DNA of 25,186 bases, taken from UHGV virus genome UHGV-1407433, one strand, 5' to 3'. Shown in pieces: positions 608 through 24,050 of this stretch (position 1 is the stretch's first letter; every line of letters begins with the position of its first letter). Position numbers and translations under genes: made by a program. The DNA is from a virus. A model generated the notes under the pieces. The model was given only the letters and a program-made list of their open reading frames with translations, made no database searches and had not been told where the DNA came from.

Positions 608-954
608 TTAATACATGTTGGGCAACGCCAGTGTTGGCATAGCTATAGTTGTATCAAATGCCATTGACCACCCACCCAAATAATAATTGCCGACTACTTT
701 ATTCCTTTCTGCTCTGACATTCCCACCTGTCATTACAATTCCTTTATACCTAATATTTCCGTAACCACCAACGTGTCGACAGTTAGCCCCGGTATAAACA
801 ATCTGGCAAAATTCATCACCAATATTCAGGTTCGCATTGGCGATATTTATTGCCCCATCAAAAATGAATGGCTTCGTGCAAGTAAGAAGACGTTTGCGTT
901 GACGATTGGTTTATTCAATCCATCAACTAAAATACCATGTAAACGAATTGCCAT
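608..954 (-). pseudogene. decayed stf-like (side tail fibre N-terminal domain) fragment, frame broken at a T5 run
   Basis: ATG at 954 follows AGGA. It encodes MAIRLHGILVDGLNKPIVNANVFLLARSHS, which resembles the lambda Stf start MAVKISGVLKDGTGKPVQNCTIQLKA as I recall it. The frame stops at 849..847. The -1 frame stays open from 910 to 608 (FIFDGAINIANANLNIGDEFCQIVYTGANCRHVGGYGN...PNMY) but has no start of its own. The switch point is the homopolymer at 860..864. Confidence 0.45.
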
Positions 955-971
955 AACATTTCCTACTTTAT

Positions 972-999
972 TTGACTTACTCAACACAACAAGTATATT
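972..999 (+). promoter_or_regulatory. sigma70-type promoter for the plus-strand lipoprotein gene
   Basis: TTGACT (972..977), a 16 nt spacer, then TATATT (994..999). Each hexamer matches consensus at 5 of 6 positions. The predicted transcription start is near 1006, about 30 nt upstream of the SD and start position. Confidence 0.6.
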
Positions 1000-1036
1000 A
1001 AAATTGAACCTTGTCAACAACCTAAAAGGAGTCCCG

Positions 1037-1270
1037 ATAAAACGTTCTATTGTAATTTTGACATTAACATTTCTGTTATCTGCTTGCGGTACTGGTTTGG
1101 ACACAGGAAAGCCTAATTCCGGTGTTATTCCAAAACCTTTAGACCGTGACGGTAACGGTTCTTTAATCTATGACACTGAAAAACTGCCTTATACTGGTCA
1201 ATGGTGTCATGAACTCGATCACAATATGCGCCGCATCGGTAGCCCGTCCAACTGTGTAGCTAACTACTAA
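1037..1270 (+). CDS. small secreted lipoprotein; candidate superinfection-exclusion or receptor-masking accessory gene
   Basis: The signal peptide KRSIVILTLTFLLSAC has a lipobox L-S-A-C. AAAGGAG (1025..1031) lies 5 nt before in-frame ATA (1037). The mature part is about 60 aa with two further Cys. The gene is AT-rich, opposes the late operon, and ends at a bidirectional terminator. The start codon is uncertain, because no ATG, GTG or TTG lies downstream of the predicted transcription start. The 773..1003 part of the track ORF is antisense to the stf-like fragment and is rejected. Confidence 0.6.
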   Translation: MKRSIVILTLTFLLSACGTGLDTGKPNSGVIPKPLDRDGNGSLIYDTEKLPYTGQWCHELDHNMRRIGSPSNCVANY

Positions 1271-1271
1271 A

Positions 1272-1304
1272 AAGAAAACCACGCGCGAAGCGGGGTTTTT
1301 GTTT
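1272..1304. terminator. bidirectional intrinsic terminator between J and the lipoprotein gene
   Basis: The stem is AAAACCACGC / GCGGGGTTTT with one mismatch and loop GCGAA. It is flanked by an A run on one side and a T run on the other, so both convergent transcripts end in a U tract. Confidence 0.75.
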
Positions 1305-4300
1305 ATTCAGAGAATGAACCTGAACCGCGCGACACTATGACGGTCGGTGAGTTTATATACGCACCCATACCATTTTGAGCAGATACTCTAATTTTCACTG
1401 TAACCCACCTGCTATATACTGCTGATGAGTGCATCACAAGGCGCTCGGTGCCATCAACGGAAAGATTTTTCTCTGAACCGTTAATGTTTATTGTACACCC
1501 ACCAAAACCTTTTACGTTTGCCATAACGCAGATATGTCTGCTATGTGCTGCGTCAGATGTGTCATTGTATGTGATTGTTTTTTCGAGTACCCCATTATTT
1601 AATCTACTAACGTCAGATCCTGTGTACATGTTTGCAACATCACCGATAAACGAACTTGCTTCCACTGTTCCAGTAAATCTACCGTTGGTTGCATACACTG
1701 TACCTGTGAAAGATCCGTTGCTAGCGTATACAGTACCTCTGACAGTTACGTTGTTGAATTCAGCATCTCCAGCTTTATTCAACTTCCAGCCAGCAGAACC
1801 AGCAACATAATTGTTCGACTGGATAAAATTACCAATCTTTGCGTTGCTGATAGTGCCGTCCTGGATGAAACTGTCCCGGATGAATGTCTGCCCGTTCTGG
1901 ATCACAAACGGTAAAGCCACGCTATTTCCGGCTGCCGTGGTGACGGCGAAGCGATCAGCCAGGAAGATAACCTGCGACTGCATGCCGGATGGCGTATTCT
2001 CCACGCCGATACCCATCCCCGCGGCGTAATACTGCCCGTTGCTGGAGACACCAACCTTGATGTTGTACATCGCGATGAGGTCGCCGTTTACGTTCGCTAT
2101 AGCCTGAGCGTTGGTGGTGATGGCTGAGGTATGCCCGTTCACCGTAGCCGTAATGCCGTTTATCTGCGTGGCCGTTGCCTGCTGATAGTCGGAGAACGTC
2201 TGATTCAGGCTGTTTATGGATGCCTTGTTGCCGTTGACATCCGTCTGCAGGCTCAGCAGAGAGCGCGCCGTTGCCTCCTTCTCGTTAACGATTACCTCAT
2301 CAATACGATCCAGCTGCGCACTGTTACCGGCGACCGTCGCGGAAAGCCTTTTGCGTGTGGCCACCTGCGCCAGCCCGTTCTGGATAATGGCAATGGCTGA
2401 GTTCTTGACCCCGCCCGTCATGCCGTCCATAGACACGCTGATGCTGTCGATTCGCTGGCCCAGCGCGGTATCAGCCGTTGCGACGGTCTGCTCAAGATCT
2501 GATAGAGAGGAAGATACATCACCGACCGTGCTCGAAAGCTCATTAACACTGGTCTGAACCTGCCCAATGTCCTGCGCGTTTTTTGCGATTTCCTGCGCCT
2601 GGAGCTCAAGTTCATCGTTGGCCTGTTTGATGTCGTCAGCCATGCCAGCAATTTTTTCATTGCTGTCCACCGCGTTCTCGATCAGGTCTTTGAACGTATC
2701 GGAGTCTTTAATTTCCTCCAGAATCACATCTGTGATATCGGAAACATCGATGCTGGCCTGTCCTCGCACCCATTCTGTGTACCCTGATTCGTTGCCGCTG
2801 CGGTCCACCAGCTGCGCGCGGTACCAGAAAATCTGCCCAGCCTTAAGGCCCATCTGCTGATATTTGCGCTGCGGGTAAGGCACATCGGCCAGCAGCATGG
2901 CATCGTCTTCAGTACCGGTCAGGCTGTACTGAATTTCCGTCTTCAGCGTGTCGTCGGTATTCGCCTGGAATCCCCAGTTCAGCTCGATACCGAACACCAC
3001 GTTTTCAGAGGCGATAAAGCCAACCGGCTTCGGTGGATTGCCCACTTTACCCGTCAGCGTTTTCTCTTCTGAATAGCCCCATCCGGATGAAATTTCTGCG
3101 GCATTGATTGCGCGCACCCGCACCAGGTAGCGCCCGGCATAAATCCCCGGGACGTCGAATGACGTGGTGGAGGTGCGCGGCACGTTAACCCAGTTCCCGT
3201 CGTTGCGGCGCCATTGCGCTTCATAGGCGATAGCGTTCTGCGCCTGGTCCCAGCTCACGCGCATTGTTTCGACGCTGATATTTTGCTGAACCACGGAAAA
3301 CGAGCTGATCACGATATTCGCAGGCGGCGACTGGTTGCCCGGCGGGATCACGCTCACCGGCCGTTGGTCAATGATGGCTCCGGTATCGATACGGGCATAT
3401 TTATCCGGGTCGTGCCATGCGCCGGTAATCGAGAAAGTGCCATCATTGTTATCGGAAACGCTGACAACACGATACTGCTGCGCGTAAAGCTCGTCAGATT
3501 CAACCACCCAAACAGCTTCGGCCTGTGGCGTCTCACTGTATGCCGTGGTGACTGTGACTGATTCCCCGTTCACGGCCTGAATGGTCCTGCTCTGCGACGC
3601 TCCGGAAGGCAGGTTGAGAATAAGGCGATCACCTGGTGCTGCATCAGCTACGCGGTCAAGTTTGATAACGCGACCGTTAACGGCGCTGATGCGGCCGCCC
3701 ATAACCTTTCCGGAAAGCAGCTCGTCTGCCACGGCGATGATGTAGCCCGGCTGCGGAATGTTTCCGTCCAGCCCGACATCAAACGAAACAACGCGATCCT
3801 TGTTATTGGTGAGAATACCCCAGCGCCCCTTTCGGTTCGCCTCTGACTGCCTGGTGCAGCCGATGGCTGTCATTTCCAGCTGATTGAAGCCGTACCGCGC
3901 CACCAGCGCCTGCTCAAATACCGGCTCCATCGCGTCGGCATAAGCGTTACCCGGGTCTGACCATGAAACCAGCGCTGTGGTGTAGCGGCTTTTGGTGGTG
4001 CTGCCCGAATAGGTAAAGCGCCCATTAACCACGTTTGCACGCGTGTAGCTGTAATCCACATCGCGGGGCATATCCGCCAGCGCAACGATTTGATCGCCAC
4101 CCCAGTACGTCATGCCCCGGAATATCGCCGCAAAATCACGTAACACGGTATAGGCGTCATTCCTCTCCTGCACGTACACGTTACAGGTATAGCGAGGCTC
4201 AGTGCCGCTACCGCCTTTACCATCAGGAACCGGCTGATCGCAATATTGCGCGACCTGATAAAGCGTCCATTTATCAATATTGGCCGCCGTCAGGCGATTG

Positions 4301-5193
4301 CCCAGCCCAAAGCGGTCGCTCACCACCAGATCGTAAAAAATCCAGGCTGGATTATCCGTCCACGCCCACTTAAACGCCCCTGTCCATGTGCCGCTGTAGG
4401 TGCGGGTCTCCGGGTCATACGTATCCGGAACGCGGATTACACGCCCTCGCGGTTCGCAGGATATTTGCGGGATAGAGCCGTTAAACTGGCTTGAGTCGAA
4501 TTCGATGTACAGCAGCGCGGTATTTGGATAACGCAGTTTGGCGTCAATAACCTCTGTGTAGCTCTGCAGCGTCATCGTGTCGCCAATTTTCGCGCTGTTG
4601 GCATCCGCCGTAAGCTTACGCAGGCGCACCGTCCATGTACTGCCTGCCTGTGGTAAATCGATACGATGGCTGCGTTCGTAGCCGGAAGTTGTCTTGCCGG
4701 TTACGCTGGTATTAAGTACCGTCTGCCAGGTGCCGCCATCGGTCTGCAGATCAATAGCGTAGTTAATTGAATAGCCAACCAGATCGCCATCATCCTCCTG
4801 TTTAAAAAGCGATGGCCACTTGAGGCGCAGGCGAACGGCTGACAGTTGCGTGTTGGTAAAGGTATGTGTCCAGCCGGTGGTGCTTGACACTTCGGTGCCC
4901 ACGCTGATTTCATTTTCTGTGCCGGGGATACCCTGAATATATTTTTGTGCCTGAGTCCCCGGACGAAATTCCCACGCCACGCCACTGAAGTTTTGCGATC
5001 CGTCTGCATTCTCCAGTGGCGTGCCATCGAGATAGATATCCTTCGCCGTCAACTGCCCTGCAAATTCGCCCTCTCCCAGTGCAACAAGAATTTTGGCTTT
5101 CGCTACGGACTGGAGATCGTCTGGTTGTTCAGTCGGGGTGCGTGAACTGGAGCTGCCGCCCTTGCGGCCTCTAATCGGAGTAGATGTAGCCAT
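1303..5193 (-). CDS. J: tail tip / host specificity protein J (central tail fibre)
   Basis: 1296 aa. The N-terminal two-thirds are collinear with lambda gpJ as recalled (YPNTALL, KWxLYxxxQYCDQxVPDG, FN3-like region). A long coiled-coil segment follows, then the conserved YYAAGMGIG..QVIFLADRFA block and a divergent C-terminal receptor-binding end. Confidence 0.95.
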   Translation of the reverse strand: MATSTPIRGRKGGSSSSRTPTEQPDDLQSVAKAKILVALGEGEFAGQLTAKDIYLDGTPLENADGSQNFSGVAWEFRPGTQAQKYIQGIPGTENEISVGTEVSSTTGWTHTFTNTQLSAVRLRLKWPSLFKQEDDGDLVGYSINYAIDLQTDGGTWQTVLNTSVTGKTTSGYERSHRIDLPQAGSTWTVRLRKLTADANSAKIGDTMTLQSYTEVIDAKLRYPNTALLYIEFDSSQFNGSIPQISCEPRGRVIRVPDTYDPETRTYSGTWTGAFKWAWTDNPAWIFYDLVVSDRFGLGNRLTAANIDKWTLYQVAQYCDQPVPDGKGGSGTEPRYTCNVYVQERNDAYTVLRDFAAIFRGMTYWGGDQIVALADMPRDVDYSYTRANVVNGRFTYSGSTTKSRYTTALVSWSDPGNAYADAMEPVFEQALVARYGFNQLEMTAIGCTRQSEANRKGRWGILTNNKDRVVSFDVGLDGNIPQPGYIIAVADELLSGKVMGGRISAVNGRVIKLDRVADAAPGDRLILNLPSGASQSRTIQAVNGESVTVTTAYSETPQAEAVWVVESDELYAQQYRVVSVSDNNDGTFSITGAWHDPDKYARIDTGAIIDQRPVSVIPPGNQSPPANIVISSFSVVQQNISVETMRVSWDQAQNAIAYEAQWRRNDGNWVNVPRTSTTSFDVPGIYAGRYLVRVRAINAAEISSGWGYSEEKTLTGKVGNPPKPVGFIASENVVFGIELNWGFQANTDDTLKTEIQYSLTGTEDDAMLLADVPYPQRKYQQMGLKAGQIFWYRAQLVDRSGNESGYTEWVRGQASIDVSDITDVILEEIKDSDTFKDLIENAVDSNEKIAGMADDIKQANDELELQAQEIAKNAQDIGQVQTSVNELSSTVGDVSSSLSDLEQTVATADTALGQRIDSISVSMDGMTGGVKNSAIAIIQNGLAQVATRKRLSATVAGNSAQLDRIDEVIVNEKEATARSLLSLQTDVNGNKASINSLNQTFSDYQQATATQINGITATVNGHTSAITTNAQAIANVNGDLIAMYNIKVGVSSNGQYYAAGMGIGVENTPSGMQSQVIFLADRFAVTTAAGNSVALPFVIQNGQTFIRDSFIQDGTISNAKIGNFIQSNNYVAGSAGWKLNKAGDAEFNNVTVRGTVYASNGSFTGTVYATNGRFTGTVEASSFIGDVANMYTGSDVSRLNNGVLEKTITYNDTSDAAHSRHICVMANVKGFGGCTININGSEKNLSVDGTERLVMHSSAVYSRWVTVKIRVSAQNGMGAYINSPTVIVSRGSGSFSE

Positions 5194-22998: not shown

Positions 22999-23514
22999 CT
23001 ATTGACGCTCGCTCTCTATTTGACGAATTCCAGCGAAATTGTTATTGCCCTTTTCAATCACGGCCAGCAGCGGCTTAATCCAGAGTACAGCCTGGCAGTA
23101 CGTTATTGAGCCGGCGGCAGCGGTACTATCATCGGCTGCGTCAGGTCCGTCGGTATCGGCGTGCATTGCGCTGGAACGTAAACGGTACGCGTATTCGAGC
23201 AGCCCACCAGCAATGTCAGCAGGAACAGGCAGATCACAGGTTTTTTCACGGCGGAGTATCTCCCGGTATTCAATTACGGTTTCTTCGGTGCTGGTGTCGA
23301 TCAGGGAGTTAAGCCTGTTGGCATGTTCTGCAACCTGATTGAATCGATTGAAGTTGAATGCCTGGGTGGCGATCACCTGCCCCTGCATAGAGTTGTCACT
23401 TCGCAGAACGTCGTTATCGCTCTGTAGGCTACTGGCGTCGGAGCAGCTCTTAACGAGAGCGACGGAAAGGCCAGCAATAACGACAACGCCGATAAGACCC
23501 GGATTAATTTTCAT
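22999..23514 (-). CDS. Rz: i-spanin Rz
   Basis: The start [21 protein letters not shown] at 23514 gives an N-terminal transmembrane domain and overlaps the endolysin stop as ATGA. The periplasmic part is coiled-coil, and the Rz1 frame is embedded. Confidence 0.9.
   Translation of the reverse strand: MKINPGLIGVVVIAGLSVALVKSCSDASSLQSDNDVLRSDNSMQGQVIATQAFNFNRFNQVAEHANRLNSLIDTSTEETVIEYREILRREKTCDLPVPADIAGGLLEYAYRLRSSAMHADTDGPDAADDSTAAAGSITYCQAVLWIKPLLAVIEKGNNNFAGIRQIESERQ
23103..23249 (-). CDS. Rz1: o-spanin Rz1 (lipoprotein) embedded in the +1 frame of Rz
   Basis: Absent from the ORF track (48 aa). The protein is (GTG)KKPVICLFLLTLLVGCSNTRTVYVPAQCTPIPTDLTQPMIVPLPPAQ*, with lipobox LLVGC and a Pro-rich mature part. 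The start is GTG 23249 or an upstream TTG. Confidence 0.8.
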   Translation of the reverse strand: MKKPVICLFLLTLLVGCSNTRTVYVPAQCTPIPTDLTQPMIVPLPPAQ

Positions 23515-24050
23515 TGGTCCAGCCCCCAGCACGCCAGCGCGCTTTCCTGGTCCCGTCGCTCAACCTGGCCATAGCAGCCATTCTTCTGGCCTTTGGTTAG
23601 ACGACAATCACGGCCACCGTCTTTAATCCACCAGCGGATTGCCTCGCATGCACCGATGCGGTCACCTGCGTTGATGCGCTTATAGAAGGTCGATGGGAAG
23701 CATTTACCGGGGCCGATGTTATACGGGCAGAAGGATGCGATACCCACCTTCTGAGGCTCTGTCAGAGGCACTTTGATATTGCGATCAACCCAGGCTAATG
23801 CCTTATCGCGTTCAATAGCGTTAACCTTCCGGCATTGTTCCTCAGTGGCCGTCATGCCTTTAACAACACGCCTGCCATCGATAACGGTCACGCCGTGACA
23901 TAAAGACCAGACCCCACCCGGATCAACAACGGCCACCAGCGCATTGCCTTCTTTCTCGCTGATGAATTGGTCAAAAATGAGTGGAGCAGAAGCCCCTGAC
24001 GCGATTAGCGCCAGCACTGCTACGCTGAGCTTTGCTTTGTTCGACATCAT
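23511..24050 (-). CDS. R: SAR endolysin (T4-lysozyme-like muramidase, phage 21 R type)
   Basis: The N-terminal segment [19 protein letters not shown] is weakly hydrophobic and Gly/Ala-rich. The catalytic spacing is E-x8-D-x5-S in [16 protein letters not shown]. The start overlaps the holin stop. Confidence 0.9.

Follow-up and report, generated by a model that had tools for sequence, protein, structure and literature searches.

A widespread ATA-start allele of a phage lipoprotein gene of the Lpp010 family and its probable attenuation

How much product should be expected from a phage gene whose promoter, ribosome-binding signal and reading frame are all in place, and whose start position reads ATA? 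This question is raised by a small lipoprotein gene on the plus strand of UHGV virus genome UHGV-1407433, a stretch of 25,186 nucleotides (nt) that we refer to as the window. The window represents a prophage and matches a portion of the chromosome of Escherichia coli O68:H12 strain 97.3 at 100% identity, and the gene (1037-1270) lies beside the receptor-binding end of the tail-tip gene J. Below we describe the evidence that the gene is a member of a family of exclusion lipoproteins linked to the maltoporin LamB, that its ATA replaces an ancestral ATG, and that the allele is widespread. We then weigh what the replacement would mean for expression, where a severe loss of output is the interpretation we consider most probable.

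The intact open reading frame (ORF) comprises 77 codons, begins IKRSIVILTLTFLLSAC and ends with a TAA stop at 1268-1270. Its predicted product, (I/M)KRSIVILTLTFLLSAC-GTGLDTGKPNSGVIP..., opens with a lipoprotein signal peptide (1037-1084) that is evident on reading the sequence, with K2, R3, a hydrophobic core and the lipobox LSAC, and that gives a weak profile match (LPAM_1, E = 0.005). The codon for the lipidated cysteine, Cys17, lies at 1085-1087 and is followed at position +2 by glycine, a residue other than aspartate; the mature 61-residue lipoprotein and stop codon occupy 1085-1270. In an alignment of 28 sequences the Cys17 column is invariant, and the columns of two further cysteines, Cys57 (1205-1207) and Cys73 (1253-1255), are nearly so. 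A Shine-Dalgarno sequence, AAGGAG (1026-1031), is located 5 nt before the start position and is kept in all Seurat/Nissle-type alleles. Further upstream is a sigma-70-type promoter, TTGACT-16-TATATT (972-999, plus strand; −35 element at 972-977, −10 element at 994-999), from which a transcript is predicted to start near 1006-1007. This is the top sigma-70 match (10/12) within positions 500-1500, where matches of this general kind are no rarer than in shuffled sequences (4 found versus 3.0 ± 2.2). The predicted promoter is credible because it is conserved, and not from its consensus score, as both hexamers and their spacing are kept in virulent Seuratvirus phages and in prophages. A preliminary description of this stretch had proposed the promoter, the Shine-Dalgarno sequence 5 nt ahead of an in-frame ATA, a lipoprotein signal opening at that codon, and two conserved-looking cysteines in a mature part of about 60 residues, and each of these proposals is borne out.

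Downstream of the stop codon, a hairpin with flanking A and T runs (1274-1300; −11.8 kcal/mol, z = −2.2) is predicted by folding, and by the annotation of relatives, to form a bidirectional terminator common to the lipoprotein gene and J; the annotation of phage Seurat calls it a bidirectional terminator, and that of the mEp phages a terminator. By comparison, the fold of positions 1006-1075 is no more stable than those of shuffled sequences, and thus the 5′ untranslated region gives no sign of a regulatory fold at the start. The arrangement supports the view that the gene is a moron-like, self-contained cassette at the receptor-binding end of J, with its own predicted promoter and a shared terminator. 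The window haplotype carries a C>A mismatch in the terminator stem at 1281 (AAAACCACGC...GCGGGGTTTT), and the perfect stem is kept in the other ATA haplotype and in the mEp phages.

The identity of the gene is established by profile comparison. The window protein matches phrog_12984, annotated as 'lipoprotein', with E = 7e-44 across positions 1-77 of 77, and the same family is matched (E = 1e-26) by Lpp010 (mEp010_116, gp116), the product of phage mEp010. The two proteins are 62-64% identical overall, and their C-terminal 33 residues are identical at 33 of 33 positions. The motifs PNSGVIP, DTEKLPxTGQWCxE and RRIGSPSNC, which include the two mature cysteines, are conserved in the family and are all found in the window protein. 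The window ORF is therefore a member of phrog_12984, with Lpp010 as the prototype. No other PHROG was significantly matched, and Pfam, NCBIfam and PADLOC returned nothing for the window protein beyond lipoprotein signal-peptide motifs.

The preliminary description had suspected an exclusion lipoprotein of the receptor-masking type and had refrained from assigning it to either the Cor or the Llp family. The first suggestion has gained a firm footing, given that the homologue Lpp010 excludes phages (PMC11893012), and the restraint was warranted. Neither Bor nor Cor was matched by the window protein in Pfam/NCBIfam-type and PHROG profile searches. T1 Cor maps to phrog_1119 and not to phrog_12984; the window protein has no phrog_1119 match at E ≤ 1, and its alignment with T1 Cor by hhalign is confined to 21 signal-peptide columns. 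Cor is also disfavoured by receptor, since Cor is tied to FhuA-dependent phages, whereas all receptor-typed carriers of the present gene use LamB. For T5 Llp, a profile search of PDB chains, which included no direct pairwise comparison with Llp, yielded no Llp chain at E ≤ 10. We also considered svsR, a prophage small RNA that represses lamB (PMC12803456), and set it aside; its gene is at the 3′ end of cI and has no relation to this locus.

With the family established, the start codon can be compared directly. The codon aligned with 1037-1039 is ATG in the E. coli prophages ES5, ABWA45 and Nissle 1917 and in the virulent Queuovirinae KurtStettler, Dru_SM1, CSP1, SeppeHuegi, 9g and Seurat, and none of the homologues starts at a different upstream codon, an outcome that the preliminary description had named among those that would refute it. 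All 27 protein clusters recovered from a search of 5.8 billion proteins begin with MK at the start column. ATG is likewise present in every other Seurat/Nissle-type and mEp-type allele examined, save for one additional ATA lineage that is described below. The nearest comparison is with KurtStettler, which reads CCCGATGAAACGTTCTATTG where the window reads CCCGATAAAACGTTCTATTG. Throughout the promoter, the Shine-Dalgarno sequence and nt 1-134 of the coding sequence, these two differ at only two positions, one being ATG/ATA and the other a GCA/GTA codon. Among 61 tabulated Seurat/Nissle-type loci, 28 carry ATA, and all 28 share the KRSIV 5′ segment. Sequencing error does not explain the ATA, which recurs in three complete genomes that are independent of one another and in 26 more loci of public assemblies.

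The remainder of the coding sequence has a different origin. Beyond an approximate recombination junction at codon 44/45 (1168-1170), codons 45-77 differ from mEp010 by three synonymous changes in 33 codons and encode a segment identical to that of Lpp010. The last third of the gene is thus mEp010-like, as is the neighbouring C-terminus of J, and the 5′ part is Seuratvirus-like, specifically of the KurtStettler type. These comparisons indicate that the allele is a recombinant of two functional-looking parents. Besides the start codon, its sole change from both parents is one conservative signal-peptide residue that is shared by Dru_SM1, and the alignments indicate that ATA replaces the ancestral ATG through a G>A change at position 1039. 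To look for an exact ATG version of the allele, IMG/VR and the JGI metagenomes were searched with a 35-nt pattern whose start codon contained R, and nothing was matched; in a set of 5,426 complete E. coli genomes, the allele is represented solely by the three ATA copies. No family member was found in the species-representative genomes of GTDB.

What the intact gene might do is best judged from its relatives. Plasmid-borne Lpp010 excludes mEp010, mEp044, mEp554 and lambda, all of which depend on LamB, and this activity is specific for receptor class: a type-A lipoprotein blocked only the OmpA-dependent phages mEp021 and mEp515, and the type-C lipoprotein blocked LamB-dependent phages (PMC11893012). 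Eight of the eight receptor-typed phages that carry the gene use LamB (Bas21-24, with receptors from the S5 table of PMC8594841 for the BASEL phages, and mEp010, mEp013, mEp044 and mEp554, with receptors from PMC11893012). Two LptD-targeting members of the same subfamily, Bas20 and Bas25, are without the lipoprotein gene; Bas25 (VogelGryff, a Seuratvirus) has a shorter J and, in the slot between J and the lateral tail-fibre gene, an opposite-strand gene for a protein of 321 amino acids (aa) (L029:3828-4793). At 13 loci, the final ~180 residues of the J that neighbours the lipoprotein gene can be aligned as a single family, and over its last ~310-350 residues the window J is 59% identical to that of mEp010 and 50% identical to that of KurtStettler. 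No similarity was detected between the window J and the receptor-binding end of lambda J. The cassette thus appears to travel with a LamB-type tail tip, much as Cor and Llp travel with FhuA-binding proteins, and its likely target is LamB, not FhuA.

One further carrier deserves mention in this context. The Nissle 1917 prophage (L005:1637-1870; NZ_CP022686 430269-430502) has an intact ATG allele whose product is 75% identical to the window protein. Bury et al. (2018, PMC5987069) reported that lambda binds the LamB of Nissle without infecting and that some prophage factor must block entry of its DNA. We therefore consider the Nissle lipoprotein gene a candidate for this blocking factor.

From these relationships a mechanism can be proposed. 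The precursor would be exported via Sec, lipidated at Cys17 and, given the glycine at +2, sorted by the Lol system to the inner leaflet of the outer membrane, all as predicted from its sequence. By analogy with T5 Llp, which acts on FhuA, and the Rtp factor, which acts on LptD, the ~60-residue domain, probably closed by a Cys57-Cys73 disulfide, would act on LamB from the periplasmic side, such that LamB-dependent phages, including those of its own kind, could no longer infect. The ATA would reduce the output of this otherwise intact cassette, most probably to a point where exclusion in the lysogen is no longer effective. In vivo, initiation at AUA in E. coli amounts to 0.02-3% of that at AUG (bioRxiv 10.1101/063800), and therefore the default expectation is a 30- to 1000-fold knock-down. 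Moreover, nutrient limitation and guanosine tetraphosphate (ppGpp) strongly impair non-AUG starts (PMC5499595). With these considerations in mind, we judge it reasonably probable that the ATA allele represents a severe knock-down of a LamB-exclusion gene and confers little or no protection.

Several observations weigh against this interpretation, in part or as a whole, and they should be considered with care. On the side of function, Lpp010 did not exclude mEp013, which is LamB-dependent (PMC11893012), and the mechanism of Lpp010 could be either receptor masking or a block of injection. A model of the protein by AlphaFold2 from the 28-sequence alignment was of low confidence (predicted local distance difference test score 58, predicted template-modelling score 0.35) and lends no structural support. 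On the side of initiation, AUA placed in an optimised initiation region can equal AUG in vitro (PMC5499595). Perhaps most relevant is the persistence of the allele. In public assemblies, more than 100 blocks are indexed as containing it, and of the loci that were read there, 26 of 26 carry ATA together with an intact ORF, lipobox, Shine-Dalgarno sequence and −10 element. The J beside it measures 1296, 1304 or 1264 aa, and at least four kinds of tail-fibre gene lie beyond. Missense variants among ATA copies are limited to two singletons. Finally, when the window is compared with PEC389/EC23HZZ201, lineages whose flanks are divergent (~9% difference across J and ~14% in its last 300 nt), positions 1013-1280 show not a single difference. 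Given 9-12 differences in the block of 700-800 nt around it and uniform divergence of that block, such an absence has P ~0.01-0.03. Persistence of this kind goes beyond what would be required of a freshly dead gene and points to some retained value. The argument is a weak one, since retrieval by exact protein identity biases the sample to intact copies and since, at such low overall divergence, decay would not yet be expected.

Other details of the survey bear on how far the allele has spread. Among the public assemblies, 88 blocks are indexed as containing the exact 165-aa ORF that is annotated over the gene (see below), and 31 as containing the exact 77-aa call. At 20 of the 20 loci read by exact match, ATA is accompanied by an identical coding sequence, and the flanks of ATA loci fall into at least three haplotypes. 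Variant ATA copies include one with G20D and a different −35 element, one with L13M, and others with a different 3′ half of the gene; in the latter (L051/L055) the different 3′ part follows from the same junction at codon 44/45. The ATA allele is thus widespread and is not a private mutation. The preliminary description had offered a choice between a start-codon knockout and a product made at a very low level from a non-canonical start. Its premise of an ATG-to-ATA change in an otherwise intact gene stands, whereas the notion of a single knockout does not, as the allele is so widely distributed.

The same observations nourish the most serious rival explanation, in which the ATA allele is functional: the near-cognate AUA, placed after a strong Shine-Dalgarno sequence and promoter, would be read by initiator tRNA, and the resulting low but useful level of lipoprotein would be favoured in lysogens, for instance if a complete block of LamB is costly to maltodextrin uptake. 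The consistent integrity of the ATA loci, the absence of substitutions in 1013-1280, and the survival of the allele through recombination on both sides and within the coding sequence (L050, L051/L055) all fit this explanation. It is also favoured by the standing of ATA among the best non-canonical starts (bioRxiv 10.1101/063800), by its performance in vitro in a good context, by the twofold origin of ATA in the family, and by the GenBank records that annotate a 77-aa product starting at ATA. Apart from the sampling bias and low divergence already noted, the explanation is disfavoured by the second ATA lineage, which has also lost a conserved cysteine in a decay-like manner, and by the abundance of LamB, which an output of 1-3% would be unlikely to mask stoichiometrically. 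Furthermore, loci that combine the TTGACT promoter with ATG in prophage-derived contigs (L060, L062) imply that full expression is tolerated in lysogens. We regard a functional ATA allele as possible and, in view of these points, rather doubtful. A more specific version, in which ATA is a selected, working start that delivers ~1% of the normal level and so balances protection against the cost of a LamB block to maltodextrin uptake, is in our judgement unlikely. If true, it would mean that E. coli harbours a natural, widespread AUA-initiated gene, and that the same solution evolved twice in the family.

Additional alleles show that the gene has been altered on other occasions. Two loci of the mEpimmI/Lpp010 type (L080:740-988 and L081:2483-2731, from IMGVR_UViG_3300045988_062505 and _064823) have an ATA start, and both also carry a Cys-to-Arg change at the conserved last cysteine (SPSNRVANY). 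By sequence comparison, ATG was changed to ATA a second time in the family here, independently of the window allele. A Nissle-type allele (P0026; L020 and L083, the latter being IMGVR_UViG_3300030125_000004) is frameshifted after PMTG to give 74 aa with ...TGSGVTRLITN..., and is present on 29 contigs, among them a 5.1-Mb E. coli genome. Considered together, the second ATA with its loss of cysteine and this third type of lesion, a frameshift, imply that the gene has been repeatedly disabled in temperate contexts. Attenuation is nonetheless not obligatory for lysogens, given that the prophage-derived contigs L060 and L062 possess the full TTGACT promoter together with ATG. These two loci also rule out a scheme that we had entertained, in which prophages attenuate the gene either through the promoter (TTTACT with ATG) or through the start codon (TTGACT with ATA), and TTGACT with ATG is reserved for lytic phages.

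Two side observations concern the signal peptide. Two loci (L084 and L085, from IMGVR_UViG_2681813235_000002 and 2703718843_000011; match at 2501-2716) encode 48% identical proteins that have a signal peptide and no canonical lipobox (...AILLCTNAFANTNEPNSGVIP...), and these may be soluble periplasmic versions of the domain. The lipoprotein gene of mEp013 (L010:2855-3103) begins ATGGGA, as opposed to ATGAAA in mEp010, which corresponds to K2G in the signal peptide; mEp013 is also the single LamB-dependent phage that the published work found to escape Lpp010.

A different type of rival holds that the family serves another purpose, either as a moron for a Bor-like outer-membrane lipoprotein of fitness or virulence or as an outer-membrane spanin subunit (o-spanin), and that exclusion by Lpp010 is an artefact of over-expression. 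Lpp010 was indeed tested solely from a Ptac plasmid (PMC11893012), the escape of mEp013 is in keeping with this proposal, and a spanin PHROG is matched weakly, at the level of the signal peptide (E = 0.37). However, the gene is strictly linked to a J of the LamB-dependent type in both virulent and temperate phages, and virulent phages have no use for a moron that improves host fitness. The receptor-class specificity of exclusion and the lack of any Bor, Cor or PADLOC match also oppose it. An o-spanin of the Rz1 type in particular was rejected because its match is confined to the signal peptide and because the window already has an Rz-like spanin at 22999-23532, adjoining the endolysin. We therefore consider this rival very unlikely.

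The last alternative, that translation begins at an upstream in-frame codon to give an N-terminally extended protein, can draw on a frame that is open back to 668, on the RefSeq annotation of a 165-aa product and, for TTG 1004, on an extension of merely 11 residues in the n-region of the signal peptide, and yet it is scarcely credible, because none of the in-frame codons GTG 773, TTG 899 and TTG 1004 has a Shine-Dalgarno sequence, the first two are upstream of the promoter, the 88-residue extension from GTG 773 would bury the signal peptide, positions 773-954 overlap the remnants of minus-strand genes, and the extension is not conserved, as the upstream region of Nissle/ES5-type alleles is shifted out of frame by a 1-nt difference. 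The preliminary description had named TTG 1004 as the only alternative start, which overlooks the other two codons; its remark that TTG 1004 has no Shine-Dalgarno sequence and is situated no further downstream than the predicted transcript start was correct.

On this start the databases disagree. RefSeq places the start at GTG 773 and lists a 165-aa 'hypothetical protein' (WP_244574249; window 773-1270, plus strand), whereas some GenBank records, that of strain 97.3 apparently among them, have a 77-aa ATA-start product (P0030) named 'membrane lipoprotein lipid attachment site-containing protein'. The 165-aa ORF might seem to be favoured by the differences between the window and EC23HZZ201/PEC389 in 773-1036, which fall at its third codon positions in six of six cases. 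The same positions are also third positions in the ancestral tail-fibre frame on the minus strand, and with Nissle and ES5 added, just 6 of 10 variable sites fit the pattern. We therefore rejected the 165-aa ORF as a real gene and regard it as a product of chance or a legacy of the minus-strand frame.

Returning to the knock-down allele that we favour, its place among known systems can be outlined as follows. Lpp010, the 'type-C lipoprotein' of mEp010 and its mEpimmI relatives, has the same position and orientation beside J and the same shared terminator. The window allele differs from it in the ATA start, in the promoter region, and in having a Seuratvirus-type (KurtStettler) signal peptide and first ~28 mature residues. 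It is also carried by a prophage whose head, tail and lysis genes resemble those of lambda. The gene of the virulent Queuovirinae (bas22_0021 of KurtStettler, which is Bas22; Dru_SM1; Seurat gp20; 9g gp69) shares the promoter, Shine-Dalgarno sequence and 5′ coding sequence apart from the start codon, and the window protein is 91% identical to that of KurtStettler. The BASEL members of this group use LamB. Unlike the window allele, these genes begin with ATG, reside in obligately lytic phages, and are annotated only as 'lipoprotein' or 'apparent moron'.

More distant parallels are informative with respect to mechanism. T5 Llp is a 61-residue mature outer-membrane lipoprotein that is encoded beside the receptor-binding protein, contains an intramolecular disulfide and acts from the periplasmic face of FhuA (PMC9586334, which also describes a FhuA-Llp crystal structure); the window protein has a mature part of the same length, a corresponding location and two conserved cysteines, and a periplasmic mode of action is what we propose for it by analogy. 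The details must differ, since the target of Llp is a TonB-dependent transporter whose plug is used, whereas LamB is without a plug. The Cor proteins of T1, phi80, N15 and HK022 are also precursors of ~75 aa with two mature cysteines that are encoded near J on the opposite strand and exclude phages sharing their receptor, and they differ from the window protein in PHROG, mature domain and linkage to FhuA. An accessory protein of phage Rtp is cited (in bioRxiv 10.64898/2026.04.02.716166) as an exclusion factor encoded downstream of gpJ that binds the periplasmic face of LptD. As far as that citation goes, it resembles our proposal in acting from the periplasm on an outer-membrane protein that is not TonB-dependent, and it differs in its receptor and, judging by its description, in its protein family. 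By descent, then, the 5′ part appears closest to the KurtStettler-type lipoprotein and the 3′ part to Lpp010; by mechanism the closest relatives would be Llp, Cor and the LptD factor of Rtp.

The surroundings of the cassette are consistent with a region of module exchange. The head, tail and lysis genes of the window are lambda-like and apparently complete. J (TipJ) occupies 1303-5193 on the minus strand, and its C-terminal domain is of the type carried by LamB-dependent phages. The lipoprotein gene is located between J and a lateral tail-fibre gene, on the strand opposite to both, and this layout is also present in virulent Queuovirinae. In the window, a remnant of a lateral tail-fibre gene start (847-954, minus strand) diverges from the region of the lipoprotein promoter; read from 954, its first 28 codons specify the N-terminus of the 9g tail fibre (gp70) with 28 of 28 residues identical, and a stop follows. 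A neighbouring ORF annotated by PGAP as 'DUF6453' (608-865, minus strand) begins with ATT and matches just the last 85 of 332 positions of phrog_1265. Both look like leftovers from the exchange of a tail-fibre module. The block from 600 to 1020 is ~99% identical across prophage lineages that are divergent elsewhere.

In terms of biology, the gene is an allele of a known type of system and not a new kind; the family and its exclusion activity have been known since 2025. What appears to be undescribed is the start-codon allele, its wide spread, and the link that joins the genes of Queuovirinae and Nissle to Lpp010. This link ties proteins that carry no label beyond 'hypothetical' or 'lipoprotein', in Queuovirinae, in Dhillonvirus-like phages and in prophages of E. 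coli such as that of Nissle 1917, to an experimentally tested exclusion factor, and the locus exposes an annotation problem, as RefSeq puts an implausible 165-aa ORF in place of the 77-aa lipoprotein. With LamB as the likely target, the family also helps to predict receptors and cross-resistance from genome sequence. Finally, nature has provided an experiment in which the same cassette carries ATG in lytic phages and ATA in many lysogens, and this pair of alleles bears both on the weight of AUA initiation in vivo and on the cost of receptor-blocking genes to the lysogen.

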